Positions 1 through 50,104 of a stretch of 55,478 nucleotides of DNA are shown one piece after another. The position numbers and the translations under genes are program-made. The DNA is taken from the NCBI RefSeq assembly GCF_004010195.1, contig NC_057753.1, forward strand, positions 13,505,979 to 13,561,456, in the 5' to 3' direction. Position 1 is the first letter of the stretch. The number at the start of each line of letters is the position of its first letter. The notes beneath the pieces were generated by a model. The model had not been told where the DNA came from. It did no database searches and worked only from the letters and a program-made list of their open reading frames with translations. This DNA is from Chiloscyllium plagiosum (lineage: Eukaryota).

Positions 1-287
1 GACGGCAGAGTCAGAGACAAGAGCAGCAGTGATATTTAAAGGAAATATTTTCTTTTCTTTGTCCAGAGTAGAAGAAAGCTTGTCAGAGAAATCTGGAAAG
101 GTATGTCCTTCTTCCTTGTTGAATCTTCTCAGTAAATATCCGGGCGCTTTCCCGGGATACTGGATGTACCAAAAAAGCACTGGAGAAGTGGACTGTGCTG
201 AGTAATTACAGTTGAATATTACAGTGTCTCCTTCCTGAACCGTTTTTTCAAGTGGATTCTGGGAAACTGAATCTTGGCCACGCGCAC
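1..287 (-). CDS. TCR V segment 1 (alpha/delta-like), V exon, truncated by window edge
   Basis: Not in the ORF track. After the acceptor ttgcag (AG at 289-288) the minus strand reads (G)ARGQDSVSQNPLEKTVQEGDTVIFNCNYSAQSTSPVLFWYIQYPGKAPGYLLRRFNKEEGHTFPDFSDKLSSTLDKEKKIFPLNITAALVSDSAV. It has the first Cys, WYxQ and DSAV just before the expected YYC. Confidence 0.92.
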
Positions 288-369
288 CTGCAACAAACAC
301 AATGAAGTTGTCAATAAGTTGAAGGTCGAACTAGTGAAGCTTATCTTGACGATTTTAAGACAGACTTAC

Positions 370-415
370 CTGACACCACAGTCATTATAATCAGTAAAGC
401 ACATAAAAAGCACAT
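370..415 (-). CDS. Leader exon of V segment 1
   Basis: ATG at 415, MCFLCALLIIMTVVS plus G (46 nt). Phase-1 donor GTAAGT at 369 and an 82-nt intron, in frame with the V exon. Confidence 0.9.
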
Positions 416-7098: not shown

Positions 7099-7112
7099 CC
7101 ACTAGAGGGCAG
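7099..7112 (+). promoter_or_regulatory. CTCF motif in promoter of single-exon V (copy A)
   Basis: CCACTAGAGGGCAG is a near-perfect CTCF core, ~230 bp upstream of ATG 7343. A GC box GAGGGCGGAG follows at 7140-7149. Identical 14-mer in copy B. Confidence 0.7.
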
Positions 7113-7342: not shown

Positions 7343-7680
7343 ATGATGTCTGAAATTTACCGAGTTCTTTTCCTGCTTTCCTCTCTGATCTACACGGTAG
7401 AAACTGGAGAGGACGAAGTTACGCAACTTGCTCAGTGGACAGTTGTTAAGGAGGCAGAAAATGCTTCCATGGAGTGCTCCCGAACCACGACATCTGGCAC
7501 AGTGCATTGGTACAGACAGTTCCCGAACCAGCCGCCCCACTATCTGGTGATGGCCAAAAGAGAGGCTGATCAACATGAGAGGATCTCCGCTTCTGTCAGT
7601 ACAGACTACAAACAAAGTGTCCTAAGTGTGAGAGATGCCAGACTTAACGACACCGCCATCTATCTCTGTGCCAATGGAGG
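7343..7680 (+). CDS. TCR V segment 2A: leader and V domain in a single exon
   Basis: Uninterrupted ORF: hydrophobic leader MMSEIYRVLFLLSSLIYTVETG, then EDEVTQ...MEC...WYRQFPNQPPHY...DTAIYLCANG, directly followed by an RSS. Confidence 0.93.
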
Positions 7681-7719
7681 CACAGTCGTATAAACAGAGG
7701 GAGAGTCTGAACAAAAACC
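7681..7719 (+). other. 23-bp-spacer recombination signal sequence of V2A
   Basis: CACAGTC (7681-7687), 23 nt, ACAAAAACC (7711-7719). Confidence 0.95.
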
Positions 7720-8900
7720 GATGCAGAGTCCGTGTCTCCCAGTGCTGAGTATGAAAGTTATTATTTCAGGGCTCTATAATTCGATGTTAAGGAGAATGCG
7801 GTAAGAAAAAAAAGATAATATAGCCCAGCAAGAGGTAAAGAGTGCAAGAAGTGAAGAGAATTCGAAATCTGGGCGGAGACAAAGCAAGCATATACAGCTA
7901 TGCCTCCATCAGTGAAAGATGAGAGGAAGAGCAGAAATAAAGTAACAGTGCATGTAGAAGATAAAATGGTGATAAACTATTGAAAAATAAATGGAAAAAT
8001 AACGAGTGTGATGCATATCCATTAAATATTAAATCAATTTTAGTCATAAATCAACCGTGAACGAAAGTAAAGCGGCAATTATTTTAATATCATTCACATT
8101 TCATTAACAGTCACACAATCCAGTCGACTCAAATATGCTTCCGAAAACCTAATCATTCGATATCATCAAATCGACTCAATTGTTCATTCCCTGGTTCTGC
8201 AATATTCCGACATGATCTTCCAGAGGAAGCGGTAGCCCCACTCACTTAACCTCTTTATGTCTTTCACGCATACTCATTGAGCATCCTCATCACTTGCCTT
8301 GCCATTAGTATTTTTTTTTGTTTTTGACAAAATACATTACCTTCTATGAAGTTTTACAGAATCTGCTCTCTTGCCACTCCCATTCAGTCTCTCAGAGAAA
8401 CTCTATCATCATGTCTTCCGTCAAAAATGTATGTAGTATTTGGGAATTGCAGGCAATTGTGGCATGCATCACAAATATACCTTGATAATGTGGCATTGAG
8501 CCATTTTCTCCAGGTGCTGCAATGTATCCTGTATAGATGCCATGGATACATTTGCTATAGCACAATGCCAAATTAAAGAAATTTATCAGAAAATGCAGCA
8601 AAATTAACATTCCACTCTACCATTTAAATAATTCAAAATGCAGCTTTTCTTTAAATTGACATCACTGTGAGCAAAATCCTCAAACACACTGACCCTCAGC
8701 CTAGGCTAAAGGAAGCTCCCAAAACATCAGAGAGCAGCTCTTTTAACTGGGAAACCTGTTTCTGATTGGAACAACATGGACTGTGTTCCTTCTCTGACTT
8801 CGCCTATAGGCAAATAAAACTGGTTTAAATATTGGTTTAAAGTCATTGTAAAACCCCGTGATCTGGCGAATAATTTCATCGTGTTCCTTTCTCTTGAGGT

Positions 8901-9010
8901 CACCTGAAATGACGTTCAAGGAGCTTGACGCTGATTGGTTTGTCTTGAAGAACAAAGGCGATTCAACCTCATTGGTTGTCACCTGATGCCTTTGTCAACA
9001 ATGAACCAAT
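8901..9010 (+). promoter_or_regulatory. Putative promoter of V3A
   Basis: E-boxes CACCTG at 8901 and 8980, TGACG at 8910 and 8926, CCAAT boxes at 8934, 8971 and 9006, TCF/Sox-like AACAAAG at 8951. Mostly conserved at 24835-24943. Confidence 0.55.
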
Positions 9011-9102
9011 GGGCAGAGATCTGGAAATGTTAGCAATTCTTGACGAAAGTTATTTTAGCTTCGACCAGTTCTGTTCACATTCTCTGTGATCTCTCTGTAA
9101 TA

Positions 9103-9154
9103 ATGTCGCCTGGAGCATTGTGTTTATACCTCACAGCTGCAGCTGTTCTAACGG
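9103..9154 (+). CDS. Leader exon of V3A
   Basis: MSPGALCLYLTAAAVLT plus G. Phase-1 donor GTAGGT at 9155 and a 730-nt intron to the acceptor ttttacag ending at 9884, in frame with the V exon. Confidence 0.85.
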
Positions 9155-9884
9155 GTAGGTTGATAACTTGAGGATCTCTCTGTTCCAGATCAGCAGCGGC
9201 AATTACATTTACCCAAACAGTTCCATCAACACAGAGGCAGCGATACATTTTCTCCAAGTGAAAATACTCATGTGGAGCCAAAATTTTCCAACACCAGCAC
9301 CGTTTGGGATGAGTTAGCAAACGACCGTGAGTGAAAGACAGTGGAAGAATTAGGTTGGGAGGTAAGCAGGTTTGGTCCGTTCAGATACTTTCACAGAGGT
9401 GAGAGCTTTAAGCACACGTTCCGTTTTCTGTTTCCCTTCAGGATCGGGAGCGAAATGGAAAATGACCTTGTTGTGACCTGGTTATGAAGGTGGTTTTATT
9501 TAATCTGTCAAAACTCTTTATCAATGCATCTGCTGAGTTCCATGATGTTTATTCTTTTTTAGCTTCCCGAATTTATTTCTCAGATTATTGTTCAAGGTAA
9601 CAGGATGACTGTGGCATAAGAATAATGAAGTGTTCTCTGTAATTTCCGGATTCTCCTGGAGTCTCTAACTTCAAGTGCTAATCTTCTTAATGTTGACCTT
9701 TGCAGCAAACCTGTATGCATCTGTCCAAGTTTGTTCTCCTCATCCTATGATTTGCACTGTTTATCCTTCTTTACTATGATCTGTCTATACCACCCGTAAA
9801 CAAAGCTTTTCACTGCACTGAGGTACACTTGACATGTAGTCCATCAATTAACCAATCAAATAAATCAAGCGATCAATTTTACAG

Positions 9885-10227
9885 AACTTTGTCGAGGAGA
9901 TTCTGTCTCACAGACACCGGCTTTGATCGTAGTGAATGTGGGGGACAGTGTCCAGTTGTTCTGTAATTATACTACCATAAGCAGCACTCCTTACCTGTTC
10001 TGGTACCGTCAACATTCCAGTTGTTCCATGGAATTTCTGCTATGGAGAAGCAAATTTAGCGGGAACACAGAGAAGTTTCACAGAGACCGGCTATCCTCAG
10101 AGCTCGATCACGTGAACCACACCATCAACCTGAAAGTGGTCAAAATAGAACTGGCAGACCCTGCAGTGTACTACTGCGCACTGAGACCCTCGGAGTCTCA
10201 GAACTGGGTTGACCCTGTGCATACACT
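9885..10227 (+). pseudogene. TCR V segment 3A: open V exon (9885-10188) with a defective RSS
   Basis: (E)LCRGDSVSQTPALIVVNVGDSVQLFCNY...LFWYRQ...ADPAVYYCALRP. The RSS position reads CTCGGAG (10189-10195), 23 nt, GCATACACT (10219-10227). The CAC needed for RAG cleavage is lost. Confidence 0.82.
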
Positions 10228-11857
10228 GTCAGAGAGTCTCTAAGCATGACAGTGTGTGTCACGCAATGTTGAGATCAAGAGTGGTTCTGAAATGAAGAAT
10301 TCTCGGTGATTTCTGATATTTTTCATTTGAATGTAAAACTTTATTCGTTATAATTATATTATAGAAATAAACTAAAGCTGTCTATTTAGTGAATGAAAAG
10401 TGAACACATGATTTCAAGCCTTTTGTAATGTCACAAAGTGTTCCACGTTTACAGCAATGAGCGATGTAGAAAATGCAGCAACCATTTGCATCTAACAAAA
10501 TTCAAATCATTTGTTTGGAGAAACAATGATCGATCACGTGATTCTGATCGGTCACGTGAATCACTGGAGCAACCTGAGCACCATAAAACATTTTGTACGA
10601 TAATGATAATGCCCCTAAAGCTGAATGTTAACAGTTTCAAAATAGCAGTGGATAAATTCGTTGGTGCAGAATAATGCAGGCTTGCTTTCAAATACCAATT
10701 AGAAAGTGGGATGTAACTCAGATCTGAACAACGTTAACCAATTAAACAAACTTAATAATGGCTGATTAATGAGTCAAAGTCATCAGTGGAAGTCTCAGTC
10801 GCATGTGGTTTCTGCTTGCTGAGCTGTCTGAAAATTCACCCACCACCTAAATTTGTTGATTGTTTTCCCATCATTCACATCTAATTATGTCAATTGTTTA
10901 AAGACTAGAGGAGTCCTCTCCTCCCTCTGGCGACGTTAAGAGAAACCGAATATTATTGCGAACACAAATTGCATTGGAGAAGGTGAAGGTAGTCTGCCTC
11001 GTGGACTGCTGAACTCCTTGAGATGGAAGGAAACTCAGTGCTGTAAGCAAGGGAGTTCCAGAATGTTGACTCAGTAAAAGTCTGGTTACTTACTTTGAGA
11101 GAAAATTGCAGGTGGTATTGTAATCCAAACGTTCGGAATTTTCAAATCTATTTTGTTTATTCTTGGTTATATGTCTCCTCCAGGATCCTGTTCATCTAAC
11201 GGTCTGGACACTTATCAGTGACCGCAGTGAGGTCACTGTGGATCATTAAACTAACGGACTGGCACTGATACAAAGACGGGGGTGGCAGGAATAGCTCAAT
11301 AAGTCTGGTGGCACCTGTGAAGAAAAATTAAAGTTTACTTCTTGTGTCCTGTGCCCCTTCCTCAGAATTGAAACATTTTCGATATAACCCCTGTTTGAAG
11401 ACATTGCTTGGCTGGTGGTGGGAAGGGCAGTACCATGCATGCACGGTCCGCCTGCATTACCACACACTGCCCTTGAATTGGGCATGAATTACTTTACGTA
11501 ATGGGACTTCACGAGATGTGGAGACAATGCCGAGGACTGCGAGAGCAACTCCTCCCGATTGCAGACAATGGCGTGGCTACCTCTGCTCAATCTGTCCTGC
11601 GGGTGGAATGGGACATACTCAGGGAGGGTGAACGTTGTGTCGCAGATGTTGTCTATCAGATATGATTCCATAGTTATGGATCTGACAGGCTGTTGCTTGA
11701 GTAGTCTGGAAGACAGTTCTCCAACTTTGGCACTACTTCCCCAGACATTCGTAAGGACACCTTTGCAGAGTCCACATTACTCTTTTTACCTCGTTAGATA
11801 TCATGTGAATCATTCCATTGCATGTCTTTGTTGAGACTTCAAAGAGATCAATAGACT

Positions 11858-12185
11858 TGGTTGGCACAATGGCTCAGTAGTTCGCACTGCTGCCTCACAG
11901 TACCAGGGACTGGCATTCAATTCTATCCTCGAGCGAATGTGTGTGTAGAATTTGCACGTTTCCCCGTGTTTGCCTGGGTTCCTTCCCGGTGCTCTGGTTT
12001 CCTGCCGCGATCGAAATTTGTGCAGACTAAGTGAATTGGCCATGCCAAAATTATCCATAGTGCTCAGGGATGTGTCATGGGAGATGTAGAGTTATTGGGT
12101 TGAGTCTGGTCGGTTACTTTTCAGAGGGTGGTGTGGATTTGTTGAGACAAATGGCCTCTTTTCACACTGCAGGGATTCCATGACA
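11858..12185 (+). mobile_element. tRNA-derived V-SINE (HE1-like)
   Basis: TGGCACAATGGCTCAGTAGTTCGCACTGCTGCCTCACAG head. Paralog of 1689-2010. Confidence 0.75.
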
Positions 12186-13759
12186 TTTATAAAAAGAGTA
12201 GCTTGCTCGACCAGTACTGTGGATATGTAGTTGCATATGGGCCAGACCAGGTGAGGATAGAGAATTTTCCGAAGTGCATTATTGAATCATATCAATCAAT
12301 TGACAATGTTGCTCATGGTCATTGTAGACTCTTACATGCAGATGTTTAATATTATTCAATTCAAATTTCATCATCTTCTTTGGTGGCATTCGAATCCCGC
12401 TTCCCAGAACATTAACTGACTATCTGCAATAATACTCCAGCGATAATACTGATAGATTATCTAATCCCACTTTGGTGGACTTTTTCCAAAGCTTTCCTTT
12501 TCAAACATGTTTTCTGTTTCCTTTTGAAAGTTCCCATTGAATGTTTATTGATCATTATTTCAGGAAATGGATTTCAGCACATTTTAATTCGTTAGAAGGA
12601 ATGAGGCCTATCTCAAAAGTCAGTGTGTGGGATGCACATATAACACACAAGAGAACGTACTTGGGCACAATGCATATCTTTCTTTATCGAGTATTCAAAC
12701 TATTATCATAATGAAGAATCTTAACAGATCCATTTCACTTACACTTCCACCTGCAATTTTACTACAGATTTTAACTAATTACTTTCAAATGTGATTTTTC
12801 CCCACAAATCAGGATGGTAACACAAACAGGTACAAATGTTGGAGAATTATCAAGTGCCATTTTCAAACTGGAAAGTTAAACCTGCCACTTTACTTTCAGT
12901 CAGGAACAAATCACAAACACAACCGTCTATATGTTTCAGATCTCCAGCATCCACAGTTATGATTCATATTATGAATCTGATCACAGCCTTCCTGAGAAAG
13001 GAATTTTAACCCATCCAGAAGTTTGACAAACATACACATCAGGGAGATACGATGCTCAACCTGTGCGTGGTCATGGATTAAATTGATCACCTCCTCGACA
13101 GACACAAAGACGATGTTGTAGGAGGAACCATGACCCATCCTAGCTGGAAATCTATTGACGAATGTCATGGGAGATCAATGTCTGGAGTTCGTTGTGAACG
13201 TTTCTGAAGCAAAACGTGAAAGACCAAATTAAAATCAGCTTGTTTTAGCTTTAGCATTGGTTAAAGAGAGTGCGCAATTAATAATGTGCGTGTTTAAATT
13301 CGTTATATTCAGCAGAAGATCTATCAGTTGATTCTTACAGACAATAATATTTATTTATTGGACACAATTAATATGAAAACCAGAAACTAACAAAAAAAAC
13401 ACTACGAAATGTCTTATGCTTTAATTTAACTTTGCACATTCGTATACACCACACTCGAACTTGGCCAGGCTCTATGTGGTGATGTTTTCCTTTTTTTCTG
13501 ATGGTCTTGAAGTTGCCTTCTCCTTCAAGTGTTATTCTCGAGTTAACATCTGACTGCGGTTTTGCGGTGTCTGTGATCCTTCCGAGTCTTCACGCTTTGT
13601 GGGAGGGTTTTGAGGGTCTGCCAATGGACTAATTAGGTTTGTTTACCCTGATCGATCAGACCCAACCAAGTGTTGGCACGTTGATGGCAGGGTGGCCCTT
13701 AGGTGTCCAATATGATAGGTGCTGGGTGCATGCAACCTCCTCCAAATAACAGACCTTTG

Positions 13760-16700
13760 CTGTTTTTGAATTCATGTGTAGCTGGACATCGGAGTGCATC
13801 TGGGAAAATTAACAAACAGTGAATTTCACAACTAACCTTGGAGGAACCGATTTGGGCGAAGTTCACAACACACAATCAGGTAAGTTAATTGTTGTTTTAT
13901 GTCTGTCCAAGAGAAAGGCTGTATTAGTGAGTACAGTGGGTTCTTTCTTGATTATATTGGAGATGTTTGGAGATAAGTCTCTTGATTAAACTTAAAATAT
14001 AAGCCATAACTATTAGTTTAACCTAGTGCAGCATTTTGTAGAGGAATAAGACTGTGTTATTTTCTGGGCCTGTCGATTGTGAAGGAGAAAACATGGCCTT
14101 TAGTGCAGTGATGTATACTTCTTGTCAGATGTGAGAGTTTAAAGAGCGTTTAAGGGTTACTGCGGATTATATCTACCATAAATGCTGTTGGATGCGAATC
14201 TTATCAGATCGAATGGATTGGTTGTAGAGACAGATAGAAGCAATGAGGAATTTGCAACAGCAACAGTATGTGATGGATGGCAGTTATACGAAGGGGAGAA
14301 AGTCTCAGAGACAGTCACATAGACGGGTTAACTCCAGGAAGGGTAAGAGAGGTAGGCACATAGAGCAGGAGCCTTTTGTGGATATACCCATTTCAAACAG
14401 GTATGCTGTTTTGGAAAATGTAGGGGTTGATGGATTCTCAGGGGAACGTAGCACGAACAGCCACGTTTCTGGTATTGAGACTGGCTCTAATGCAACGAGG
14501 GGTACATCGGGTTCCAAGAGATCGATTGTGTTAGGGGATTCTGTAGTCACAGGTACAGACAGATGTTTCTGTGGCCAGGAGAGAAAAAACAGAATGGTGT
14601 GTTGCTTCCCTGGTGCCAGGATCAAGGATGTCTCAGAGAGGGTGCAGAATGTTCTCAACGGGGAGAGGGGCCAGCAGGAGGTCATTGTCCACATTGTAAC
14701 CAACGATATAGGAAGGGAAAAGGTTGAGATTCTGAAGGGAAATTACATAGAGTTAGGCAGAAATTTAAAAAGGAGGTCCTCAAGGGTAGTAATATCTGGA
14801 TTACTCCCAGTGCTACGAGCTAGTGAGGGTAGGATTAGGAGGATAGAGCAGATGAATGCATGGCTGAGGAGCTGGTGTATGGGAGAAGGATTCACATTTT
14901 TGGATCATTGGAATCTCTTTTGGGGTAGAAGTGACCTGGGCAAGAAGGACGGATTGCACCTAAATTGGAAGGGGACTAATATACTCGCAGGGAAATTTGC
15001 TAGAACTGCTTGGGAGGATTTAAACTAGTAAGGTGGGGGTTGGCCCCAGGGAGATAGTGAGGAAAGAGATCGATCTGAGACTGGTACAGTTGAGAACAGA
15101 AATGAGTCAAACAGTCAGGACAGGCAGGGACAGGGTAGGACTAATAAATTAAACTACATTTATTTCAATGCAAGGGGCCTAACAGGGAAGGCAGATGAAC
15201 TCAGGGCATGGTTAGGAACATGGGACTAGGATACCATCGCAATTACAGAAACATGGCTCAGGAATGGGCAGGACTGGCAGTTTAATGTTCTGGGTTACAA
15301 ATGCTACAGGAAGGACAGAAAGGGAGGCAAGGGGGGTGGGGAGGAGGGGATCAGTTTTGATAAGGGATAGCATTGAAGCTGTATTGAAGGAGGATATTCC
15401 CGGAAATACGTCCAGGGGATTTATTTGGGTGGAACTGAGAAATAAGAAAGGGATGATCACTTTATTAGGATTGTATTATCGACCGCCTAATAGTCAGAGG
15501 GAAATTGAGAAACAAACTTGTAAGGAGATCTCAGCTATCTGTAAGAATAATAAGGTGGTTTTGGTAGGGGATTTTAACTTTCCCAACCTCGACTGGGACT
15601 GCCATTGTGTTAAACGTTTAGATGGAGAGGAATTTCTTAAGTACATACAAGACAATTTTCTGCTTCAGTATATGGATGTACATTATAGATAAGGTGCAAA
15701 ACTTGACCTACTCTTGGGAAATAAGGCAGGGCAAGTGACTGAGGTGTCAGTGGGGGAGCACTTTGGGGCCAGCGACGATAATTCTATTCGTTTTAAAATA
15801 ATGATGGAAAAGGATAGACCAGATCTAAAAATTGAAACTCTAAATTGAAGAAAGGCCAATTTTGACGTCGCTAGGCAAGAACTTTCGAAAGCTGATTGGA
15901 GACAGATGTCCGCAGGTTAAGGGACGGCTGGAAAATGGGAAGCCTTCAGAAAAGAGATAACAAGAATCCAGAGAAAGTATATTCCTGTCAGGGTGAAAGG
16001 AAAGGATGGTAGGTATATGGAATGCTGGACGACTAAAGAAATTGAGGGTTTGGTTGAGAAAAAGAAGGAAGCATATGTCAGGTATAGACAGGATAGATCG
16101 AGTGAATCCTTAGAAGAGTATAAAGGCAGTAGGAGTATACTTAAGAAGGAAATCAGGAGGGCAAAAAGGGGACATGAGATAGCTTTGGCAAATAGAATTG
16201 ATGAGAATCCAAAGGATTTTTACAAATATATTAAGGACAAAAGGGTAACAAGGGAGAGAATAGGGCCTCTCAAAGATCATCAAGGCGGCCTTTGTGTGGA
16301 CCCACAGAAAATGGGGGAGATATGAAATGAATATTACACATCAGTATTTACTGTGGAAAAGGATATGGAAGATATAGACTGTAGGGAAATAGATGGTGAC
16401 ATCTTGCAACATGTCCAGATTACAGAGGAGGGACTGATGGATATATTGACACTGTAAAAGTGGATAAATCCCCAGGACCTGATCAGGTGTGGAAAGCTCT
16501 GTGGAAAGCTAGAGAAGTGATTGCTGGGCCTCTTGCTGAGATATTTGTATCATCGATAGTCACAGATGAGGTGCCGGAAGACTGGAGGTTGGCAAACGTG
16601 GTGCCACTGTTTAAGAAGGNNNNNNNNNNNNNNNNNNNNNNNNNNNNNNNNNNNNNNNNNNNNNNNNNNNNNNNNNNNNNNNNNNNNNNNNNNNNNNNNN

Positions 16701-17870
16701 NNNNNNNNNNNNNNNNNNNNNNNNNNNNNNNNNNNNNNNNNNNNNNNNNNNNNNNNNNNNNNNNNNNNNNNNNNNNNNNNNNNNNNNNNNNNNNNNNNNN
16801 NNNNNNNNNNNNNNNNNNNNNNNNNNNNNNNNNNNNNNNNNNNNNNNNNNNNNNNNNNNNNNNNNNNNNNNNNNNNNNNNNNNNNNNNNNNNNNNNNNNN
16901 NNNNNNNNNNNNNNNNNNNNNNNNNNNNNNNNNNNNNNNNNNNNNNNNNNNNNNNNNNNNNNNNNNNNNNNNNNNNNNNNNNNNNNNNNNNNNNNNNNNN
17001 NNNNNNNNNNNNNNNNNNNNNNNNNNNNNNNNNNNNNNNNNNNNNNNNNNNNNNNNNNNNNNNNNNNNNNNNNNNNNNNNNNNNNNNNNNNNNNNNNNNN
17101 NNNNNNNNNNNNNNNNNNNNNNNNNNNNNNNNNNNNNNNNNNNNNNNNNNNNNNNNNNNNNNNNNNNNNNNNNNNNNNNNNNNNNNNNNNNNNNNNNNNN
17201 NNNNNNNNNNNNNNNNNNNNNNNNNNNNNNNNNNNNNNNNNNNNNNNNNNNNNNNNNNNNNNNNNNNNNNNNNNNNNNNNNNNNNNNNNNNNNNNNNNNN
17301 NNNNNNNNNNNNNNNNNNNNNNNNNNNNNNNNNNNNNNNNNNNNNNNNNNNNNNNNNNNNNNNNNNNNNNNNNNNNNNNNNNNNNNNNNNNNNNNNNNNN
17401 NNNNNNNNNNNNNNNNNNNNNNNNNTTGCCAGGGTTGGAGGATTTGAGCTATAGGGAGAGGCTGAACAGGCTGGGGCTGTTTTCCCTGGAGCGTCGGAGG
17501 CTGAGGGGTGACCTTATAGAGGTTTACAAAATTATGAGGGGCATGGATACGATAAATAGACAGTCTTTTCCATGGGTTCGGGGAGTCCAGAACTAGAGAA
17601 AATAGGTTTAGGGTGAGAGTGAAAAGATATAAAAGAGACCTAAGGAGCAACGTTTCCAAGCAGAGAGTGGCACGTGTATGGAATGAGCTGCCAGAGGATC
17701 TGGTGGAGGCTGGTACAACTGCAACATTTAAGAGGCATTTGGATGGGTATATGAATAGGAAGGGGTTGGAGGAATATGGGCTGGGTGGGACTAGACTGGG
17801 TTGGGATATCTGGTCGGCACGGACAGGTTGGACCAAAGGGTCTGTTTCCATGCTGTACATCTCTATGACT
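13760..17870 (+). mobile_element. Near full-length CR1 LINE (disrupted, with N gap)
   Basis: ORF1 SGNH-esterase motifs (IVLGDS, CFPGA, HIVTND, DGLHLN; 14243-15028). ORF2 endonuclease (LGLYYRPPN, LVGDFNFP), RT-proximal KSPGPD...PEDWRLANVVPLFKK, and C-terminal RVWNELP..TFKRHLD. 3' tail CTCTATGA. Absent from copy A. Confidence 0.93.
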
Positions 17871-19075
17871 CAAAGGGTACTAGGCGCCTCTCTGTCTAGC
17901 GAATGACCTACTGCTCCCAATTGTTCAGAGGGCGACATTGCATTATCACCTTCAAGTCCAACTTCAGGTGTGCATTACAGGGTCTGCAGCTGTCAGGTTT
18001 GTTTGCAAACCTCTATGGGCAGCTGCAGTCTATCTGGATTGTGCAGCATGTAGATTAGCACCGTCACTTTAGTGAAGGCTCAAGATCGATTTCCCAGAAC
18101 GCTTTCATCATCATTCATCTTTTCTAACTCCATGCAAAGTGTGTTTGTGTCCATCATATGTTCATTCTTTCAGGTGACACTTCCGGCCACAGTAAACTTG
18201 CTCTTCAGAAGTCCTGTTGAATAGAGAACGTAATGTTGTGTAATTTTTAATCAAGTTTCAAAGTAACTTCATTCATTCTGGAAATAGAGTCTGAAACCTG
18301 AAAAATGGCAACTATGAAAATTGGAGTGGCGAATTGCTTATGATGGATTGCCAAAATACACAGAATGATTTGGAAGTGCACAGGCAGTACTGAGTGGTTG
18401 AGGAGGTATTATACAGTCTGTAATTATTATTTGTTCCACGAAAACAGAAACATATGGCTGGAAAAATAAATCAGCTGTGGCTAACGAAAGATTGAAGATA
18501 CCTATTTTTCATGGTTTTTGAAGGCCGCAAGAAAAGATTGAAAGCAATTTAAAATTAAAGAAAGGATGAAAAAAAGACCGATTAAAGTGGAAAAGGGAAG
18601 ATGCATGGAATCTCAGAGGAATCATTAATGTGGACGGCAGAAGATGCTTACATAGATGAAATGCAGAAAAACACAAAAACATATTGGATTGACACCTAGG
18701 CTATCAATTCCAATATTCATTGCCTTATCACTAATGCACAGTTGCAGTAGGGTGGCCACAATATGCATTGCAGTAATTCACTAAGTGCCCTGCAGCAGAA
18801 CATTCTCATGCCCTCTACCACCTAGAAAAACAAAGATAGTAGATGCATGGGACCACTTCACTCTCAGGCCATACTCGGCCATGACGTGGACCTGCTCACA
18901 CTCTTTCATGATCACTTGGTCAAGACCCTGGAAATCTCTTGCTAACAACAATGTAAGTGCCCCAACTCAGCAAGTAGTGCAGACATCAAGAAGGCAGGTC
19001 ACCATCACGTTCTACCAGACAGTTCGGTTTGGTCAAAGCAGCTCTCCCTGGTTCTCTGTGCTGAAAGTGATACAA

Positions 19076-19092
19076 TGCCACCCTCTGCTGGC
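19076..19092 (-). promoter_or_regulatory. CTCF motif, reverse orientation (copy B)
   Basis: Plus strand TGCCACCCTCTGCTGGC, identical to 3507-3523. Confidence 0.6.
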
Positions 19093-20099
19093 GGCTGCAC
19101 ACCACTGCACAGGCAGAGTGGAAAAATCGTTGAGGATTTTGTCAGAGGGATGGAGCAACGCACTGCACTGTTCAAATCTACAACAGCATCTACACACACA
19201 CTTAGTCCGTGTGTGCGCGACAGGCGCGATCAGTGTGAAACATTATGTGCCACCTTCAGCAAATGTGCCTACAGAAGACAGATTAAGCAGCAACAAGTCC
19301 TACAACCAGAAATGTCAACACTGGAAACACTGTGACAGCAGCCATTAAAATGCCAGCCCGGTTCTTTCTGTTACCAGTAGCTCAAATGTTTTGAATGCCT
19401 AGTTTCTCTGCGTTAAAGGAATACAGGGTGTATTTGTTCATGTCAGTAAGAGTTGCAACCGATTGAATTATGTATCATCAGTTCATAATTGTTAACCTGC
19501 ATCTGGAATATATTAATTGATAATGAATAATAATTTATGTTAAGTACCGAAACCCGGACCGGGCTGTCTGTTAATTTGGGAATAAAGGACAGGTAAATCC
19601 GGAAATTTGTGAACTTTGAAAAATTATCGAACATTTGGGATACCTCCAGGAACTGCAGGTCATGTGGCTATGCAGGGATTCCAATAATCCATCTGCATTC
19701 GGAAATGTAAATATTTAAATTTCTTCTATCATGGGAAATCCTTCTAAATTAGACCATTGAGTCCAGGCAACATGTGTGCAAATTCCTTCAGCACTGTTTC
19801 ATTTTAATAAATCTGTATTTGCATCAATATCCGTGACAATTAAATTAGATTCCTGATTTCCTAAATACACTGACTACGCTTCAAAAAGTCAGTTTTTGAA
19901 CGACACTAAAGCGCCTGGAATGTGTTATCCTTCTGCGTGACAAGTATTTTGGAAGTGTCCATCCCTCAGTTACGGTGAAAACATTCAGAATCAGTTCGAG
20001 ACATCTCTCAAGTGAAGATCACTGCCTTTTGAGGAAGGGTATTCCCAAGACTCACAATGCTCTAACAGATACGTTTTCCCTCGTCTCTGATGGAAAAAT

Positions 20100-21030
20100 G
20101 GAGAGAGTCATAGAGTCCTACAGCACGGAAACATGTCCTCTGACTGAAATGGTCCATGCCGTCTGTCCATGCTAACATCATTTTCCTGCAGTTGGCCCGT
20201 ATCCTTCTAATCCTTTCCTGTCCATGCACTTATCTAAATCCCTTTAAATGTTGTGAATGTACCCGCTTCAACCACTTCCACTGGCATGTCATTCCACATG
20301 AGTACCACCATCTGTGTTAAAAATGTTGCCCTTAGGTTTCCCTTTTATTCCTTCCCCTTAAACTGATGCCCTCTAGTTCTTGATTCCCCAACCCTGGGAA
20401 AAAGATTGAGTTCATTCACACCGTCCATGCTTCTCATGGTCTTATACACCTCGATAAGATCCACACCCCCATTCCCGTTCCCCTCAGTCTCCTACACACT
20501 AAAGATATAAGTCCTAGTTTGTCCAACCTCTCCTTCTAAGTTGACCATTGAGTCCAGGCAGCATGCTTCTAAATTTCTTCTGCACTCTTTCCATTTTAAC
20601 AAATCCTTCACATAGCAAGGTGACCATACTGAGCACAATACGGCCTCATCATCTCCTGTACAATTGCAACATAACTTCACAACTTCTATACTCAATTCCC
20701 TGACTGATGAAGGCTTGTGTGCCAAAAGCTTTCTTTACTGTCCTGTCTAACTGCGAGTTTCAGAGAACCGTCCATCTGAACACCAAGGTCCGTCTGTTGC
20801 ACTACACTCCTTAAGGCACTACCATCCATCATGAAGCTCTTGCTTTGAATTACGCTTTCCAAAATGCAAGCCCGTATACCAAATTCTATTTGCCATTTCT
20901 GGCCCAGTTCCCCTACTGATCAGGGTCCTGCTGCAATTTCTGACGACCTTCCTCACTGTCCACCATACCTCCGATGTTAGTGTCATCTGTAAACTTACTG
21001 TTCATGCCTTGAACATTCTCATCCAAATCA
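20100..21030 (-). mobile_element. CR1-type LINE, 3' fragment (copy B)
   Basis: Paralog of 4465-5400. Confidence 0.78.
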
Positions 21031-21614
21031 TTGATCTCAGAACATTGGATAGCTGTTTTAAAATGGGCGAGTTTAAACTATAACCCCTCGTTCTAATACG
21101 TCATGAATATTAGAAAGTAGCCCTTGAAAAATTCCCAATCTGAGCCCTCTTAAAAGAATGTGATGGTTTTTGAAATGCCTGATTCGAGAGCAGATGTTGG
21201 AAGTATATGACCTTATTAAGAAGACAGCAACAAGCAGAGAACTTCGACACTGTAATATTTTCAACATCAAGCCGGAAGTAATTTCCTTTACACAAGGAGA
21301 TGGACACATCCATTCACACGCATGTGCGCACACACACAAACACCAACAGACAAAGATAAACACAGACACACACACAAACACACAAAAATACATGCCCATG
21401 AACACACAGAAATACACGTTGGTAGCCACATAAAAGTACACATATACACAGGCCGCAACATACCTAAATAGATGCGCAGACAGAATTGTAAATACAAAGA
21501 CACACACAAATCCTGAGGCACGCACACACACACAAAAGCAAAAACCTCAAATTTAGCAAGTCCCCTGCTCGTTTTCATTTTGCACGCTATCTGTCGCTCC
21601 ACTTCTGTCCACAT

Positions 21615-22150
21615 TTAGGACATGGAACATTCCAGCGCAGTCCAGGCCCTTCGGCCCTCGATGTTGCAACGACCTGTGAAACCAATCTAAAGCCCATCTA
21701 ACCTACACTGTTTCATTCTCGTTCACCTGCCTATCCAATGGCCATTTAAATGCCCTTAAAGTTGGCGAGTCTACTACTGTTGCAGGAAGTGCGTTCCACG
21801 CCCCTGCTACTCTCTGAGTAAAGAAACTACCTCTGATATTTGTCCTATATCAATCACTCCTCGGTTTAAAGCCATGTCCCGTCGTGCTCTCCATCGCCAT
21901 CCGAGGAAAAAAGCTCTCACTGACCACTCCATCCAACCCTCTGGTTATCTTCTATGTCTCAATTAATTCACCTCTCAACCTTCTTCTCTCCCAATGAAAA
22001 CATCCTCAAGTCTCTCAGCCTTTCCTCGTAAAACCTCCCACCCATGACAGGCAACATCCCAGTAAACCTCCTCTGAACTCTTTCCAAAGCTTCCACATCC
22101 TTCCTAATGTTGTGACCAGAACTATGCGCAATACTCCAAGTGCGGCTGTA
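21615..22150 (-). mobile_element. CR1-type LINE, 3' fragment (copy B)
   Basis: Minus-strand RKDVEALERVQRRFTGMLP...YEERLRDLRMFSL. Confidence 0.8.
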
Positions 22151-22272
22151 CCATTTAGTTTCAACTTCTGAAGCACCAGCATTATGAATGGACAGCATCT
22201 TCCAATAGAATGAGATTTCAGAGATACTTGCCTGGTTTTGGCCAGACTCCATCAGGGTGAAGGTGTGTGTTT

Positions 22273-22297
22273 TGTGTGTGTGTGTGTGTGTGTGTGT
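22273..22297. repeat. (TG)n microsatellite
   Basis: Pure TG run of about 12 units. Confidence 0.9.
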
Positions 22298-22632
22298 CAC
22301 ATTCCATCACGGTGAGGTGACGCGCTGCTTCAAATCACAGGTCAAAACCTTCGGATTAACGTTGAGATCTTTTGCTTAATTTAGTCAGGCTGATCGAAGT
22401 GTGGAATACAGTTTCAGTTGCAATGCGTGAAGAAAATACCCCGAAATCGTTGGGTACTGCATTTGAAATAAAAAGTGCAGAGTAAACCAGGCAAGCATAT
22501 TTGGGGTTGGATGGGGTTGGGGGTGGGGGTATTGGTGGCGGCAGGAGGAGGCGGATATTTTCGTTTTCATTGACCAAGATCGTGTGAATTCAATTGTGGT
22601 CAGAACATTTACGTCGCAATTTCCAGACGTAA

Positions 22633-22646
22633 CCACTAGAGGGCAG
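22633..22646 (+). promoter_or_regulatory. CTCF motif in promoter of single-exon V (copy B)
   Basis: CCACTAGAGGGCAG, ~230 bp upstream of ATG 22879. GC box GAGGGCGGAG at 22674-22683. Confidence 0.7.
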
Positions 22647-22878
22647 GCTGAATCGTTGGCATATATTAAATGAGAGGGCGGAGTGCCATTACAAACATTG
22701 TGAGCAGCTCTTTGTGCGAAAGGCCTGGTACGGAAAGATAAACTCCAAGACACAAAATATTCCACAACTTCGAAAGAAGGCAGGACTGTGTACGACACGA
22801 AAAGAGTGTTTTTTTTCTCATTGGTAACTCTTTTTTTCCCCAACAGAACTCGGTGGACCTTACGCTTCATGTAACTTG

Positions 22879-23213
22879 ATGATGTCTCAAATTTACCGAG
22901 TTCTTTTCCTGCTTTCCTCTCTGATCTACAAGGTAGACACTGGAGAGGATGAAGTCACGCAACTTGCTCAGTGGACAGTTGTTAAGGAGGCAGAAAACGC
23001 TTCCATAGAGTGCTCCACAACAACGACGTTTCGCACAGTGTATTGGTACAGACAGTTCCGGAACCAGCCGCCCCAGTATCTGGTGATGGCCAAAAGAGCT
23101 GATCAACATGAGAGGATCTCCGCTTCAGTCAGTACGGACTACAAACACACTGTCCTAAGTGTGAGAGACACTAGACTTAACGACACCGCCGTCTATCTCT
23201 GCGCCAATGGGGG
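22879..23213 (+). CDS. TCR V segment 2B: leader and V domain in a single exon, apparently functional
   Basis: MMSQIYRVLFLLSSLIYKVDTGEDEVTQ...IECSTTTTFRTVYWYRQFRNQPPQY...DTAVYLCANG. No intron, followed by a perfect RSS. Confidence 0.94.
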
Positions 23214-23252
23214 CACAGTGTTACAAACAGAGGGAGAGTCTGGACAAAAACC
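23214..23252 (+). other. Consensus 23-RSS of V2B
   Basis: CACAGTG (23214-23220), 23 nt, ACAAAAACC (23244-23252). Confidence 0.97.
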
Positions 23253-24184
23253 TATACCAAGTTGGCGGGTCGCAGTACTGAGAATCAATGTTATTATTTC
23301 AGGGCTCTATAATTTGATGTTGAGAGGAATGTGGTAACAAAGAAAAAGAGATCATATAGCCGAGCAAGACGTAAAGAGTGGAAGAAGTGAAGAGAAATGG
23401 AAATCTGGGCAAGCATACTCACATTTGCTAACATCGGTGAAATAAAAGAAGAGAGAAAGCGCAGAAATAACGTAACAATTCATTTTCACATCATTCACAT
23501 TTCATTAACAGTTACACAATCCTGTCATCTCAAAAATGAATCCAAAAAGCTAATCATTCGATATCATCCCATTGATTGAGTTGTTCATTTCCTTGTGGAG
23601 CAAGGAAGTATCTTTTAGATATCCCGCCAGAGGAAGCTGGCGGGATATCTAAACTCTTTATGCCTTTCTTCCACTCTTTGTGCCATCCTCCTCACTTGCC
23701 TTGCCATTTCGTTTTGTGTCTGGCAAAATACATTCTCTTCTGTCAAGATTTGTATTAATGCGTACCTCTGCTCTCTCGCCATTCCCATGCAGACTTTTAG
23801 AGAAAGTGAATCATCGTGTCTTTCTTTTAAATATCAATTATGGAATTTGGGTGCCGCATGCATTTCTGGCGTTCACCACTAATAAGCCTTGAAAATGTGG
23901 CATTGAATCATTTTCTCTAGGTGCTGCAATGTATCCGGTATAGATATGGAACAAATGTAAAATTAAAGGAATGTCGATAGCTATGAATCTTATCAGAAAA
24001 TTCAGCTAAATCAACATTCCACTCTACCATTTAAGTAACTGAAAATGTAGCTTTTTTAAAAAAATTGATATCATCACTGTCTCCAAATGCCGCATACACA
24101 CTGGCCTTCAGCTAAAGTAAGTTTTCAAAACGTCAGAGAGCCGTTCTGTTAACTGGGGAACTCCAGTTCTGATACTCCAACAAC

Positions 24185-25035: not shown

Positions 25036-25087
25036 ATGTCGCCAGGATCAATATGTTTATTCCTCGCAGCTGCAGCTGTTCTAACGG
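25036..25087 (+). CDS. Leader exon of V3B
   Basis: MSPGSICLFLAAAAVLT plus G. Donor GTAGGT at 25088 and a 738-nt intron to ttttgcag ending at 25825. Confidence 0.85.
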
Positions 25088-25825
25088 GTAGGTTTGATAC
25101 TTTCAGGATCTTTCTGCTTCAGATCAGCAGCGGCAATTACATTTAACCCGCAGTTCATTCAACACAGAGGGCACCGATACATCCTCTCCAAATGAAAATA
25201 TTCATGTGGAGCCAAACTTTTCCAACCTCAGCACTGTTTGGGATGAGTTAGCGAACGTCCCCGGGTGAAAGTCAGTGGAGGAGTTAGGCTGGGAGTTAAG
25301 CAGGGCTGGACCCATTCAGATACTTTGACAGAGTTGAGAGCTTTAAACTTACTTACGGTCTGCAGTTTTTCCCTTCGGGATCGGGAACGAAACGGAAAAT
25401 GACCTTGCTAGACGGTGTGATCTGTTTATTGAAGGAGGTTTTATTTAATCTGACAAAGCCGTTTGCCAACACATCTGCTGAGTTGCATTAAATTAATTCC
25501 TGTTTATCTTCCCTAACTTATTTCTCAGGTAATTGTTCAAGGTGACAGGATGACTGTGGCATAAGAATAATGAAGTGTTTTCTGTAATTTCTGGATTCTC
25601 CTGGAGTCTCTAACTTCAAGTGCTGATCTTGCTAATGCTGACCTTTGCGACATAACCTGTATGCCTCTGTCTAAGTTTGTTCTTCCCATTCGATGACCTG
25701 TAAATCCTTTCTTACTATGATCTGCCTATACCGCTCGTAAACAAAGCTTTTCACTGCGCTGAGGTTCACGTGTGAATAAGTCGATCAATTAACCGGTCAA
25801 ATAAATTGTTCAATCAATTTTGCAG

Positions 25826-26129
25826 GACTTGGTCGAGGAGATTCTGTCTCACAGACACCGGCTTCGATCGCAGTGAATGAGGGGGACAGTGTCCAGTTGT
25901 CCTGTAATTATACTACAACAAGCAGCACTCCGGGCCTTTACTGGTACCGTCAACATTCCAGTGGCTCCATGGAGTTTCTGCTAAAGAGAAACAAATTTGA
26001 CGGGAACGCAGAGAAGTTTCACGGAGACCGGTTATCCTCAGAACTCGACCATGTGAACAGCACCATCAAGCTGAAAGTGGTGAAAACAGAACTGGCAGAC
26101 TCTGCAGTGTACAACTGCGCACTGAGCCC
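25826..26129 (+). CDS. TCR V segment 3B, V exon (ORF; YYC changed to YNC)
   Basis: (G)LGRGDSVSQTPASIAVNEGDSVQLSCNYTTTSSTPGLYWYRQHSSGSMEFLLKRNKFDGNAEKFHGDRLSSELDHVNSTIKLKVVKTELADSAVYNCALSP. Both Cys and the Trp are intact. Confidence 0.9.
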
Positions 26130-26168
26130 CACGGAGTCTCAGTACTGGGCTGACCCTGTACAAAAACT
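26130..26168 (+). other. 23-RSS of V3B (non-consensus heptamer)
   Basis: CACGGAG (26130-26136), 23 nt, ACAAAAACT (26160-26168). Confidence 0.88.
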
Positions 26169-40844: not shown

Positions 40845-41573
40845 TCAATCAGGGCAGCTGAGTGGTTTCTCTCTGGTGTGGACGCGCTGGTGTATCAGCA
40901 GTCTCGACGAGCAATTGAATGCTTTCCCACAATCAGAACACGTGAATGGTCTCTCCCCAGTGTGAACACGCTGGTGTATCTGCAGATTACATGAGCGATT
41001 GAATCCTTTCCCACATTCAGGACAGGTGAATGGTTTCTCCCCTGTGTGAATCCGCTGGTGTATCAGTAGTTTAGATGTGTAATTGAACCCTCTTCCACAT
41101 TCAGAACAGGTGAATGGTCTCTCCCCAGTGTGAATACGTTGATGTTTCAGCAGGCTGGATGAGGAAGTGAATCCTCTCCCACAGTCGGAGCAAGTGAATG
41201 GCCTCTCTCCAGTGTGAACACGCTGGTGGATCCGCAGGTCAGACGACTGAGCGAATGCTTTCCCGCACACGGAGCAGGCGAAAGGCCTCTCTCCAGTGTG
41301 AACCCGTTGGTGTATTCGCAAGTGGGATGACTGACTGAATCCCATCCCACAATCAGAGCAGGTGAATGGCTTCTCCCCAGTGTGACTGCGTTGGTGAGTT
41401 TCCAGTTCGGATGGGTAAAGAAAACCCCTCCCGCAATCCCCACATTTCCACAGGCTCTCCCCAGTGTGACTGCGTTGGTGAGTCTTCAGCTGGGATGGGT
41501 AAAGAAATCCCTTCCCACAATCCGCACATTTCCACCGTCTCTCCCTCGGGTGATTGCGCTGGCGTTTGGACAT
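40845..41573 (-). CDS. Tandem C2H2 zinc-finger protein, 8 intact fingers, no effector domain seen
   Basis: 242-aa ORF with eight CxxC-x12-HxxxH fingers and TGEKP/TGERP linkers. A candidate acceptor ctctgtttcacag ends at 41783 on the minus strand. Confidence 0.88.
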   Translation of the reverse strand: MSKRQRNHPRERRWKCADCGKGFLYPSQLKTHQRSHTGESLWKCGDCGRGFLYPSELETHQRSHTGEKPFTCSDCGMGFSQSSHLRIHQRVHTGERPFACSVCGKAFAQSSDLRIHQRVHTGERPFTCSDCGRGFTSSSSLLKHQRIHTGERPFTCSECGRGFNYTSKLLIHQRIHTGEKPFTCPECGKGFNRSCNLQIHQRVHTGERPFTCSDCGKAFNCSSRLLIHQRVHTREKPLSCPD

Positions 41574-42024
41574 GTCAGATTAACCTTCACAGACTCTTCC
41601 ACGTGCAGACGACGCCCGTTTCTTCCGCTGTGAACAATGCTTTTTCCTTCAATGTTCAAAATTCTGAGGAAAAACGAGGTTATGATAAACGGAATGACAG
41701 TCAGATCCGGATGTGGCTTCATTTGAAGTCTCCGATTGCAAATCACAAAGACAAAACAAAAGAAATTAGAGGAAAACACAAGCTGTGAAACAGAGAGCAA
41801 TTTGTGGAGATGATACCGAGGGAAACTGCTGGGATTTCATTAAAACCAACTGGTTAATAAATGTCCTTCAGGGAAGGAAACCAGTCACTGCAGAAAACAA
41901 CAGAGAGAGTGATTAAGGTGGGAGAGACAGGTATGAAGCAGACACGTTTTACACAACTCAGTCCTGTTCCTGTTTTCTCCCCCGCCCCTTTAATCCACCC
42001 CAAGGGCTAAGAACAAGTACCCAG

Positions 42025-42670: not shown

Positions 42671-44821
42671 TGACACAAAGTGCTTATGCAAAGTGGCAGA
42701 AATCCAGATTAAAATCAGAAAATGCTGGAGATGTTCAGCAGGTCTGGCGGGACTTAAAATGGTGACAGATGCAGGAATCATTACAATCTTAGAACGAGAA
42801 CAAAGACTTGTTATCTCTGGTTTGTTACCCGTGCCACCAGCTAGCGAGGTGAGGAATAGGGAGAGAGAGGAGTTGAACACATGGCGACAGAGATGGTGCA
42901 GGAGAGAGGAATTCAGATACCCTGGATAATTGGGGCTCATTCTGGGGTAGGTGGGACCTCGACAAATGGGATGGTCTCCACCTGAACCAGAGGGGTACCA
43001 ATATCCTTGGGAGGCGGGTGGAGGTTTGCTAATTTTCTTCAGGAGGATTTAAACTAAGTCAGCAGGAGGAACCTGAATTGTGGCTCCAGTGTACAGGAGG
43101 TTGAGAGTTCTGAGGTCATGAATAAGGTTTCAAGGTCACAGGACTGTACCGGCAAGCAGGAAGGTGGTTTGAAGTGTGTCTGTCTACTTCAACGCCAGAA
43201 GCATCTGGAATGAGGTGGGTGAATGTGCAGCATGGGTTGGTACCTGGGACTTCGATGTTGTGGCCATTTCGGAGACATGGATAGAGCAGGAACAGAAATG
43301 GTTGTTGCAAGTTCTGTGGCTTAGATGTTTCATTAACAACAGGAAAGGTGGGAAAAGAGGAGGTGGTGGCATTGTTGGTTAAGGACAGTATGATGGTGGC
43401 AGAAAGGACGTTTGATGAGGACTCATCTACTGAGGTAATATGGGCTGAGGGTAGAAACAGGCAAGGACAGGTCACCCTGTTGGGAGTTTTCAAAAATGTC
43501 TGAAAAATTCCAGAGATGTAGTGGAAAGGTTGCAAAGATGATCCTCAATAGGAGCGAGGGTAACATGGTAGTTGTTATGGGGGACTTTAACTTTCCTAAT
43601 ATTGATTGGAAACACCATATGTTGAGTACCTTAGATAGGTCAGTTTTTGTCCAATGTATACATGAGGGTTTCCTGACACAGTATGTAGATAGGCCAATTA
43701 GAGGCGAAGCCATATTGGATTTGGTACTGGGTAATGTACCATGGCAGGTGTTACATTTGGAGATAGGTGAGCACTTTGGTGATAGTGACCACAGTTCAGT
43801 TGTGTTTACTTTAGCGATGGAAAGGGATAGGTAAATACCCACAGGGCAAGAATTATAACTGGGGAAGGACAATTTTGACATGATTAGGTAGGGTTTAGGA
43901 TGCATTGGATGGGAAAGGAAACTGCAGGGCCTGGGCACAATTGAAATGTGGAGCCTGTTCAAGGAACATCTATTGATAAGTATGTACATATCACGCAGGA
44001 TGGAAGTGGCGAGAGAGGGAACCGTGGTTTACTAAAGACGTTGAATCTCTTATCAAGAGGAAGGAGGAGGATTATGTAAAGATGAGACATAAAGGCTCAG
44101 TTAGGGCACTTGAGTGTTACAAGGTAGCCAGGAAGGACAGAAAGAGAGAGCTAAGAAGAGCCAGAAGGGCAGATGAGAAGTCTTTGGCAGGTAGGATCAA
44201 AGAAAATCCTAAAGCTTTCTCTTCTATGTCAGGAATAAAAGAAAAAGTTCGGGCCTGTCAAGGTCAATAGCGGGAAGTTGTGCGTGGAGTCCGAAGAGAT
44301 AGGAGAAGCGCTAAGTGAATATTTTTCGTTAGCATTCACAGAGGAAAAAGAAAACGTTGTCGAGGAGAATACGGAGATACAGGCTACTAGACTAGACAGG
44401 ATTGAGGTTCATCAGGAGGAGATGTTAGCAATTCTGGAAAGAGTCAAAATAGGTAAGTCCCTTAGGCCGGATGGCATTTATCCTAAGATTCTCTGGGAAG
44501 CCAGGGAGGAGATTGCTGAGCCTTTGGCTTTGATCTTTATGTCATCATTGTCTACAGGAATAGTTCCAGAAGACTGGAGGATAGCAAATGTTGTTCCCGT
44601 GTTCAAGAAGGGGAGTAGAGACAACCCTGGTAATTACAGACCAGTGAGCCTTCGGTTATGGGTAAAGTGTTGGAAAGGATTAGAAGAGATAGGATTGGTA
44701 ATCATCTCGGAAGGAATAATTTGATTAGGGATAGTCAACATGGCTTTGTGAAGGGTAAGTCGTGCCTCAGAAACCTTATTGTGTTCATTCAGAAGGTGAT
44801 CTAACAGGTGGATGAGGGGAA

Positions 44822-49099: not shown

Positions 49100-49980
49100 T
49101 GTTTCTCTGCCACTGTCTCTTTTCGGAAGCAGGCAGGAGTGACAGGCTGGGAGGAATCCCTCTCAGTCCAATATCACCTTCCTCAGTGGAGGACTTTCAA
49201 AGCAATTTTTCAAAGTGCTTAGCAAAAGTATACTCCAGTGAAAAGGAAGGACTGTAAGGAAAAAAAGGGTAATCTGCCACGGGTGTCTAAGGAAATAAGC
49301 GAGGCTATCAAAATCAAAAAAAGAAGACATACAAAGTGGCCAAAAACAGCACAAAACTAGTAGATTGGGAAAACTTTGCAAGGTCAATAGAAAGCCACAA
49401 ACAGAGCTACAAACAAAAGTCAGGTAAAACAGGAGAAAAGAAAAGCACAGAATATAAAGAGAGATAGCACAAGTTTCCATAAATATATAAAATGAAAAAA
49501 AAAGTGGCTAAAGTAAATGTTGGTCCTTCAGAGGATGAGAAGGGGCATTAAGTTATGGGATATGATGAAATGGCAGAGGCATTTTGTACCAGTCTTCACA
49601 GTAGAGGACACCAATAACAGACACAAGCATCTCCCCCCACTACAGAGGTTGAGCTAACCGGTCTATAATTTCCCATCTTCTGTCTACCTCCATTTTTAAA
49701 CAGTGGCATCCCATTTGCTGTTTTCCAATCTGCTGGGACTGTCCCAGAGTCCAGCAAATTTTGGAAAATTAGCACCAGTGCACTTTCTATTTCATGCCAG
49801 CAATTGACAAAGAGACGAAGTTGGGTGAGGACCTGAAAACAATTATTACGGGGTGAGGACCTGGAAACAATTATTACGGAAGAGGTAGTGTTGGGAAAGC
49901 TAATGGATCTAAGGATAGTCAAGTCTGCTGACCCTGATGGAATGCATCCCAGAGTACCCTACCAAACGACATGGCGGGAG
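49100..49980 (+). mobile_element. CR1-group LINE fragment with internal inversion
   Basis: Plus-strand ORF2-like purine-rich segment. 49620-49800 is inverted (minus strand DSGTVPADWKTANGMPLFKNG...GNYRPVS). Confidence 0.65.
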
Positions 49981-50104
49981 AAATAGGGGTGGGGATGAAG
50001 GCGATAGGTCAGAGGGGAGGGTGGAGAAAGGTCGCAAAGAGTAGCTTCAGGGCAGAGGAGATGACTTGGGGGTTGCAGTGAGAGAGAGACTCACTCATTC
50101 TTGT

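Follow-up and report, generated by a model that had tools for sequence, protein, structure and literature searches.

A leader split by an intron is the usual arrangement in the variable (V) genes of antigen receptors (AgR), and a 2025 shark paper calls it canonical and 'found in all AgR genes' (PMC12227049). The chicken is the known exception, since its families TRAV1 (V-alpha1) and TRGV1 are single-exon V families (PMC10972964, PMC8456604). The Vj segment of the marsupial T-cell receptor (TCR) mu locus (TRMVj) is also a V gene without a leader intron, a lack attributed to retrotransposition (PMC2275272). In sharks, a dataset of nurse shark alpha-chain complementary DNAs (cDNAs) includes a group labelled aV9 (Ott et al. 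2018, PMC5931798), and the main text of that paper, where gene structure is not described, uses the word 'intron' 0 times. [quoted passage not shown] Two of its members, V2A and V2B, lie in a stretch of 55,478 nucleotides (nt) of contig NC_057753.1 (positions 13,505,979 to 13,561,456, assembly GCF_004010195.1), which is called the window below. The best explanation is that this is a germline TCR alpha/delta V family which probably lost its leader intron once and precisely, in a shark ancestor and independently of birds, and then spread by tandem duplication.

The shark family resembles chicken TRAV1 and TRGV1 in having leader and V in one exon, in being unrearranged with a recombination signal sequence (RSS), and in its multigene expansion; it differs in that bird TRAV1-type proteins belong to a separate V clade, the architecture being probably convergent. 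It also differs from TRMVj, in which V, D and J are already joined in the germline, whereas the shark genes are unrearranged, keep their RSS and recombine. Since V2A and V2B have an intact RSS and no joining (J) segment attached, they are not germline-joined V genes of the TRMVj type. With nurse shark aV9 the likeness is in protein sequence: 7 of its 19 cDNA rows have the framework motifs and the length of our family, as compared by eye. Those rows begin at the mature V domain, and the label also covers 12 unrelated sequences.

Single-exon V genes and their family

The two genes of the window and their signals are as follows.

7343..7680, + strand: V2A, single exon with leader (predicted signal peptide, about 21-22 amino acids) and TCR alpha/delta V domain; 112 codons, V-set E 5e-9
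7681..7719, + strand: V2A 23-RSS, heptamer CACAGTC at 7681, 23-nt spacer, perfect nonamer; 1 mismatch overall
22809..22878, + strand: V2B likely 5' untranslated region, joined directly to the leader in contigs of run X1
22879..23213, + strand: V2B, single exon with leader and V domain; 111 codons, one codon shorter than V2A
23214..23252, + strand: V2B 23-RSS, heptamer and nonamer perfect consensus, 23-nt spacer

The preliminary description of this DNA had proposed that each gene encodes leader and V domain in one exon and is unrearranged with a good 23-RSS, next to V genes with an ordinary phase-1 leader intron, and all three statements hold. Each gene is one stop-free frame that runs from an ATG through a hydrophobic stretch and a V-set domain with Cys1, Trp and Cys2 to the 23-RSS, with a single RSS mismatch in V2A and none in V2B, and the neighbours have phase-1 introns of 82 nt (V1), 730 nt (V3A) and 738 nt (V3B). 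V2A and V2B are identical at 309 of 335 aligned nt. Together with V3 they form a tandemly duplicated unit of ~9 kb, the blocks of which are 74-88% identical, and the closest named proteins are Chiloscyllium punctatum models (87-92% identity). The hydrophobic N-terminus would function as a signal peptide; its hydrophobic core (best 8-residue mean 2.4-3.3) falls inside the range of spliced leaders. The best 60 matches in the PDB are mostly TCR alpha chains, with TRAV26-1 chains near the top; a structure prediction from alignment A2 had a mean pLDDT score of 48 and was left unused. An assembly artefact was rejected, as contigs of runs X2 and X5 (organism B), whose even cover across the stretch is DNA-like, run through 22738-22997 and 22743-23073 without an intron between leader and V.

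The two genes had also been described as compact. The counts themselves were reproduced (from Trp to Cys2, counted inclusively, V2A has 54 residues, V2B 53, V3B 59 and V1 60), but they are not peculiar to the family: the Trp-Cys difference is 52-53 in the family, 50 in L025 and 53 in the minus-strand V of L067, the latter two with predicted leader introns. Compactness was therefore rejected as a mark of the family, and the short distance bears no relation to intron loss.

A search of the shark's own genome gave 149 matches among the best 150 of 191 candidates. At least 19 of these are full-length, stop-free leader and V frames, and all 19 have a CAC heptamer and 0-3 RSS mismatches. They fall into two subfamilies, A with 10 members (76-100% identical to V2B) and B with 9 (51-58% to V2B), which are ~55% identical to each other and in which the ATG and frame are kept and insertions and deletions are confined to the 5' flank. 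Because there are 19 full-length stop-free copies, with ATG and frame kept across subfamilies, the single-exon frame is not due to chance. In addition, the leader is contiguous with V in 6/6 broken copies examined. Fifteen of the 19 intact copies lie on contig C44, and the other 4 are on unplaced contigs and are possibly alleles.

About 1.1 Mb downstream of the family, on the same strand, are 10 J segments, a C1-type exon and 106 more J segments (C44, 14.55-14.69 Mb), the J clusters being located by their RSS pattern. From their order we infer that these are J-delta, C-delta and J-alpha. The 106-segment cluster (L123-L142) is unusually large and consists in large part of two or three J types repeated in tandem. 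The gapped stretch at 14.69-14.74 Mb of C44 yielded no C-alpha, and a C1-set search found no TCR constant (C) exons among the best 150 of 625 candidates. The family thus has what conventional TRAV and TRDV genes have, namely a V-set domain with the Cys-Trp-Cys framework, a 3' 23-RSS, and a place in a V array with a small J cluster, then a C exon and then a large J cluster downstream of it. What it is without is the leader split by a phase-1 intron, a usual but not obligatory feature of TRAV and TRDV genes.

Transcripts and promoter region

Evidence on splicing comes mainly from run X1, a set of contigs from a related organism that behaves like RNA. Its cover starts at 22809 and drops at the RSS. 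Two contigs bridge the sole candidate internal acceptor (22935-22936), reaching 38-45 letters before it, and no splice joint is listed for 22300-23700 in this run. V3B serves as a control: both its leader exon and its V exon have cover, and in its intron nothing but a repeat does; one contig (depth 43.1) maps to the two exons, although its joint is not among the rows listed. V3B therefore appears to be spliced in X1. The preliminary description had named an upstream leader spliced to an internal acceptor as the finding that would overturn the single-exon gene; instead, the X1 contigs cross the boundary between leader and V unspliced.

These contigs bear on the proposal that the genes are conventional after all, the apparent leader being a translated intron end and the true leader exon lying farther upstream. 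Subfamily A has a phase-1 AG behind a pyrimidine run, as an intron end would. However, subfamily B lacks such an AG, all 19 copies keep the ATG and frame, and the X1 contigs run unspliced through the site, while V3B is apparently spliced. Nor is there a conserved leader exon within 1.3 kb upstream: 12 of 18 intact members scanned were without a candidate, and the candidates of the other 6 were not common to them, except between two near-identical copies. This proposal is largely refuted, and we hold it to be very improbable.

One X1 contig of 401 nt follows V as far as 23212 and passes from there, in frame, into J sequence. Over 26 letters its J part has 2 differences from a J of the large cluster, against 10 from the small cluster's best J, so the contig is a direct join of V to J-alpha, of the relative's copy and not of V2A or V2B themselves. 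Pattern searches for its J gave 0 matches and then 2 at chance level. Junctions of the J-alpha type are the only ones seen for the family. Among the nurse shark alpha-chain cDNAs, the aV9 label (supplement 3 of PMC5931798, rows 385-403) mixes four unrelated V types: 9 rows are Ig-like (immunoglobulin-like), 7 belong to the V2 family, 2 are like L082 and 1 is like L025.

The contig and the nurse shark cDNAs also weigh on a reading of the genes as processed, that is retroposed, pseudogenes. The intron is absent, as expected of such copies, and reverse-transcriptase fragments are common in the window. But the family sits inside the V array with intact RSSs, has no J or C attached, keeps a conserved promoter block and open frames, and is expressed as alpha chains. 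The processed pseudogene was rejected on the V-J-alpha contig and the nurse shark cDNAs, unless these come only from other copies, and it is scarcely credible.

The other expression searches yielded less. None of the runs listed by the run search is recorded as RNA, and 0 reads were placed from the single-cell RNA runs X6 and X7, of which only 2% and 6% were sampled. Full alpha chains were sought as longer homologues and none was found among 369 candidates, which is weak evidence. In a profile search, 5 of 9 matches were family members (Chiloscyllium punctatum and one JGI contig), among 3699 candidates; on these matches a range beyond carpet sharks is not established. The family is real, has its architecture family-wide, and is expressed.

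Transcription would start roughly 70-110 nt upstream of the ATG. Farther upstream, at 245-280 nt, the family has a conserved promoter-like block with no trace of a dead leader exon. A conserved motif, which we liken to a CTCF site, lies in the promoter regions of both window genes.

7099..7112, + strand: CTCF-like motif, V2A promoter region; family-conserved, putative binding site
22633..22646, + strand: CTCF-like motif, V2B promoter region; family-conserved, putative binding site

Of 18 family members examined, from both subfamilies, 17 have the motif 187-282 nt upstream of the ATG; it precedes 0 of 77 other V records, a contrast biased by a pattern that was drawn from the family itself. An ATG with an immediate stop (22869-22874 and its equivalents) lies 13 nt before the second leader ATG in 8/9 of subfamily A and 1/9 of subfamily B, and is possibly a minimal upstream open reading frame.

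Relation to birds and probable loss of the leader intron

The preliminary description mentioned a single-exon leader and V in an avian V-alpha family, which the literature on chicken TRAV1, and also TRGV1, confirms, and offered as one option an ancient V-alpha lineage, without the intron, that jawed vertebrates have in common. The architecture of chicken TRAV1 is indeed identical, both groups are compact, and TRAV26-1 chains stand high among the PDB matches. We examined the relation in V-domain trees built from the shark's own genome and from phmmer matches with short Trp-Cys spacing (201 rows, then 63 rows chosen by us). The bird TRAV1-type rows are from curlew and song sparrow, picked by the QVQQ motif that defines chicken TRAV1; the chicken sequences themselves are not in the tree. 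The V2 family forms one clade (98/95), which includes P0010 from another contig, again with leader and V contiguous. The sister group of the family is formed by L025, with a predicted 176-nt intron, and three Callorhinchus V proteins (97/80). The bird proteins nest elsewhere, with V genes of squamates (95/90) and mammals (98/85), which we take to be TRAV4/TRAV26-like, with frog V genes and with four further V genes of sharks, among them one with a clear 87-nt intron. In an approximately unbiased (AU) test on 38 rows, the shark family and the bird TRAV1-type proteins as one clade were rejected (p=0.0106). Moreover, chicken TRGV1, at another locus, is also single-exon, so that the state arose more than once. 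Sharks and birds split more than 400 million years ago. An ancient shared lineage is thus not supported and seems quite improbable, and the shark loss is likely to have been independent of the bird families.

As for the loss itself, the leader intron would have gone once, precisely, at the usual phase-1 site, in a shark ancestor before the subfamilies split, and tandem duplication would then have expanded the intronless V. Of 26 curated genes, 25 have the acceptor 77 nt before Cys1 and 25 have a G as the last letter of exon 1. At this position all 16 family members compared have the phase-1 G and only 1 has an AG, and the family leader (21-22 amino acids) is as long as the two leader parts, L-PART1 and L-PART2, together. 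A single clean loss before the subfamily split fits both the phase-1 G in 16/16 and the leader length. In the present genes, RAG would join V to a 12-RSS J-alpha by deletion, and the mature product would be an ordinary TCR alpha chain.

At low resolution, the intron appears to have been removed cleanly at the usual phase-1 site by one of two routes. The usual model for precise intron loss is recombination with a reverse-transcribed spliced transcript, and recombination of this kind in germ cells, with a spliced V transcript, is the route that we slightly prefer; the preliminary description had likewise proposed gene conversion from a spliced germline transcript, one that kept the RSS. The transcript need not have carried the RSS, as crossovers in the leader and the V exon would leave the genomic RSS in place. 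This route would need V transcription in germ cells; the germline-joined Ig genes of sharks indicate that antigen-receptor loci can be acted on there. On the second route a short intron would be deleted by way of its two splice-site ends, which resemble each other, with the same product, and the leader introns of many V genes here are short (81-100 nt).

Several points weigh against a single precise loss in sharks. No direct trace of reverse transcription was found in the family. Run X1 is taken as RNA from its behaviour only, comes from a related organism and consists of contigs, not reads. The tree has 89 columns, is unrooted and is made of rows that we chose, two bird rows being assigned by the QVQQ motif; these bird rows and the sister Callorhinchus V genes enter as proteins, their intron state not being part of the comparison. 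Among 77 other V records with an RSS, a plausible spliced leader was found in 54 and none within the available flank in 23; these calls are heuristic and read by eye, on flanks that cover many, not all, of the other V hits. Whole-leader pN/pS (nonsynonymous to synonymous differences) is ~1 within subfamilies (0.098/0.099; 0.161/0.159), and is below 1 only in the core of subfamily A (0.027/0.101) and between subfamilies (0.31/0.46). The leader proteins have a mean similarity of 15.9 to true exon-1 leaders and 14.2 to intron-end translations, a difference that, like the pN/pS values, does not separate the two origins. Lastly, pyrimidines make up 76-79% of the leader core of subfamily A, and in 9/9 examined a phase-1 AG comes after it, at a distance of one codon from the usual site, which also fits an exonised intron end.

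On that alternative the family shed its first leader exon, and the 3' end of the leader intron supplied a replacement signal peptide, the polypyrimidine tract being read as Phe, Leu and Ser. The raw material for it exists, as an open in-frame ATG stands upstream in 7 of 77 other V records, the sister gene L025 included. Against this, the AG near the leader end is missing from subfamily B (0/9) and an AG at the usual acceptor position occurs in only the one member in 16, true exon-1 leaders are pyrimidine-rich too (mean 0.61, up to 0.76), a stop falls in 22 of 28 intron-end frames, and the conserved block upstream holds no remnant of a leader exon. We consider such a recruitment unlikely and retain the precise loss.

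A bolder version of the loss, doubtful in our view, is that RNA-templated editing of a still-recombining V in shark germ cells erased the intron, and that the intronless gene, being at an advantage, afterwards multiplied to 15 or more copies. The advantage would be that the V exon cannot be skipped; the V domain would also lie beside its own CTCF-marked promoter, which could alter usage or somatic hypermutation. If true, this would make the shark family, with chicken TRAV1 and TRGV1, a third independent origin and a natural experiment on the reasons for keeping the leader intron elsewhere.

Neighbouring genes and significance of the family

The V genes that served as controls in the window are the following.

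1..415, - strand: V1; L-PART1 415-370, 82-nt phase-1 intron 369-288, V exon from 287 past the window edge
9103..10189, + strand: V3A; L-PART1 9103-9154, 730-nt phase-1 intron to 9884, then V exon
25036..26168, + strand: V3B; L-PART1 25036-25087, 738-nt phase-1 intron, V exon from 25826, 23-RSS from 26130

V3 resembles nurse shark aV1, as compared by eye. The V frame of V3A is open and its RSS (10190-10228) is broken, without a CAC heptamer and with a degenerate nonamer, so on its sequence it is probably unable to rearrange; the heptamer of V3B has 2 mismatches. Elsewhere in the window are a C2H2 zinc-finger open frame (40848-41579, - strand), gaps of 1575 N, and many broken reverse-transcriptase/endonuclease fragments (14000-17900 and 43000-53200), presumably of LINE (long interspersed nuclear element) and Penelope-like elements.

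On C44, 10 Mb from the V array, L027 (~2.53 Mb) and L111 (~2.42 Mb) are TCR-type V genes with a perfect 23-RSS that lie near Ig-like C exons. They are the next relatives of the family in the tree and have a catshark orthologue. Their leaders are ambiguous: L027 has an 18-amino-acid in-frame ATG and also a candidate leader 2 kb upstream. The seven records with an open in-frame ATG (L025, L027, L033, L050, L063, L082 and L086) have it 36-49 codons before Cys1, probably in the 3' end of the intron, where it is a trap for single-exon calls as well as raw material for exonisation.

In the literature we found no account of a shark V family without the leader intron, though earlier mention is possible in other shark TCR papers and in the supplements of genome papers. 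The proteins were already known from cDNA and the architecture from the chicken; what is new is a probable independent shark origin, not found in print. Annotation pipelines that demand a splice acceptor, or that run with the single-exon search off, would miss such genes, and one newt study turned off its single-exon V search. No new function is shown. The family is an exception to a rule stated as universal for V genes, to which the chicken is the known exception, and a large, expressed intronless V-alpha family in a shark means that the leader intron is dispensable for recombination and expression. With intronless and intron-bearing V genes in one locus, it offers a comparison for the roles of the intron, among them surveillance of out-of-frame transcripts, skipping of the V exon and the hypermutation of shark TCR alpha.

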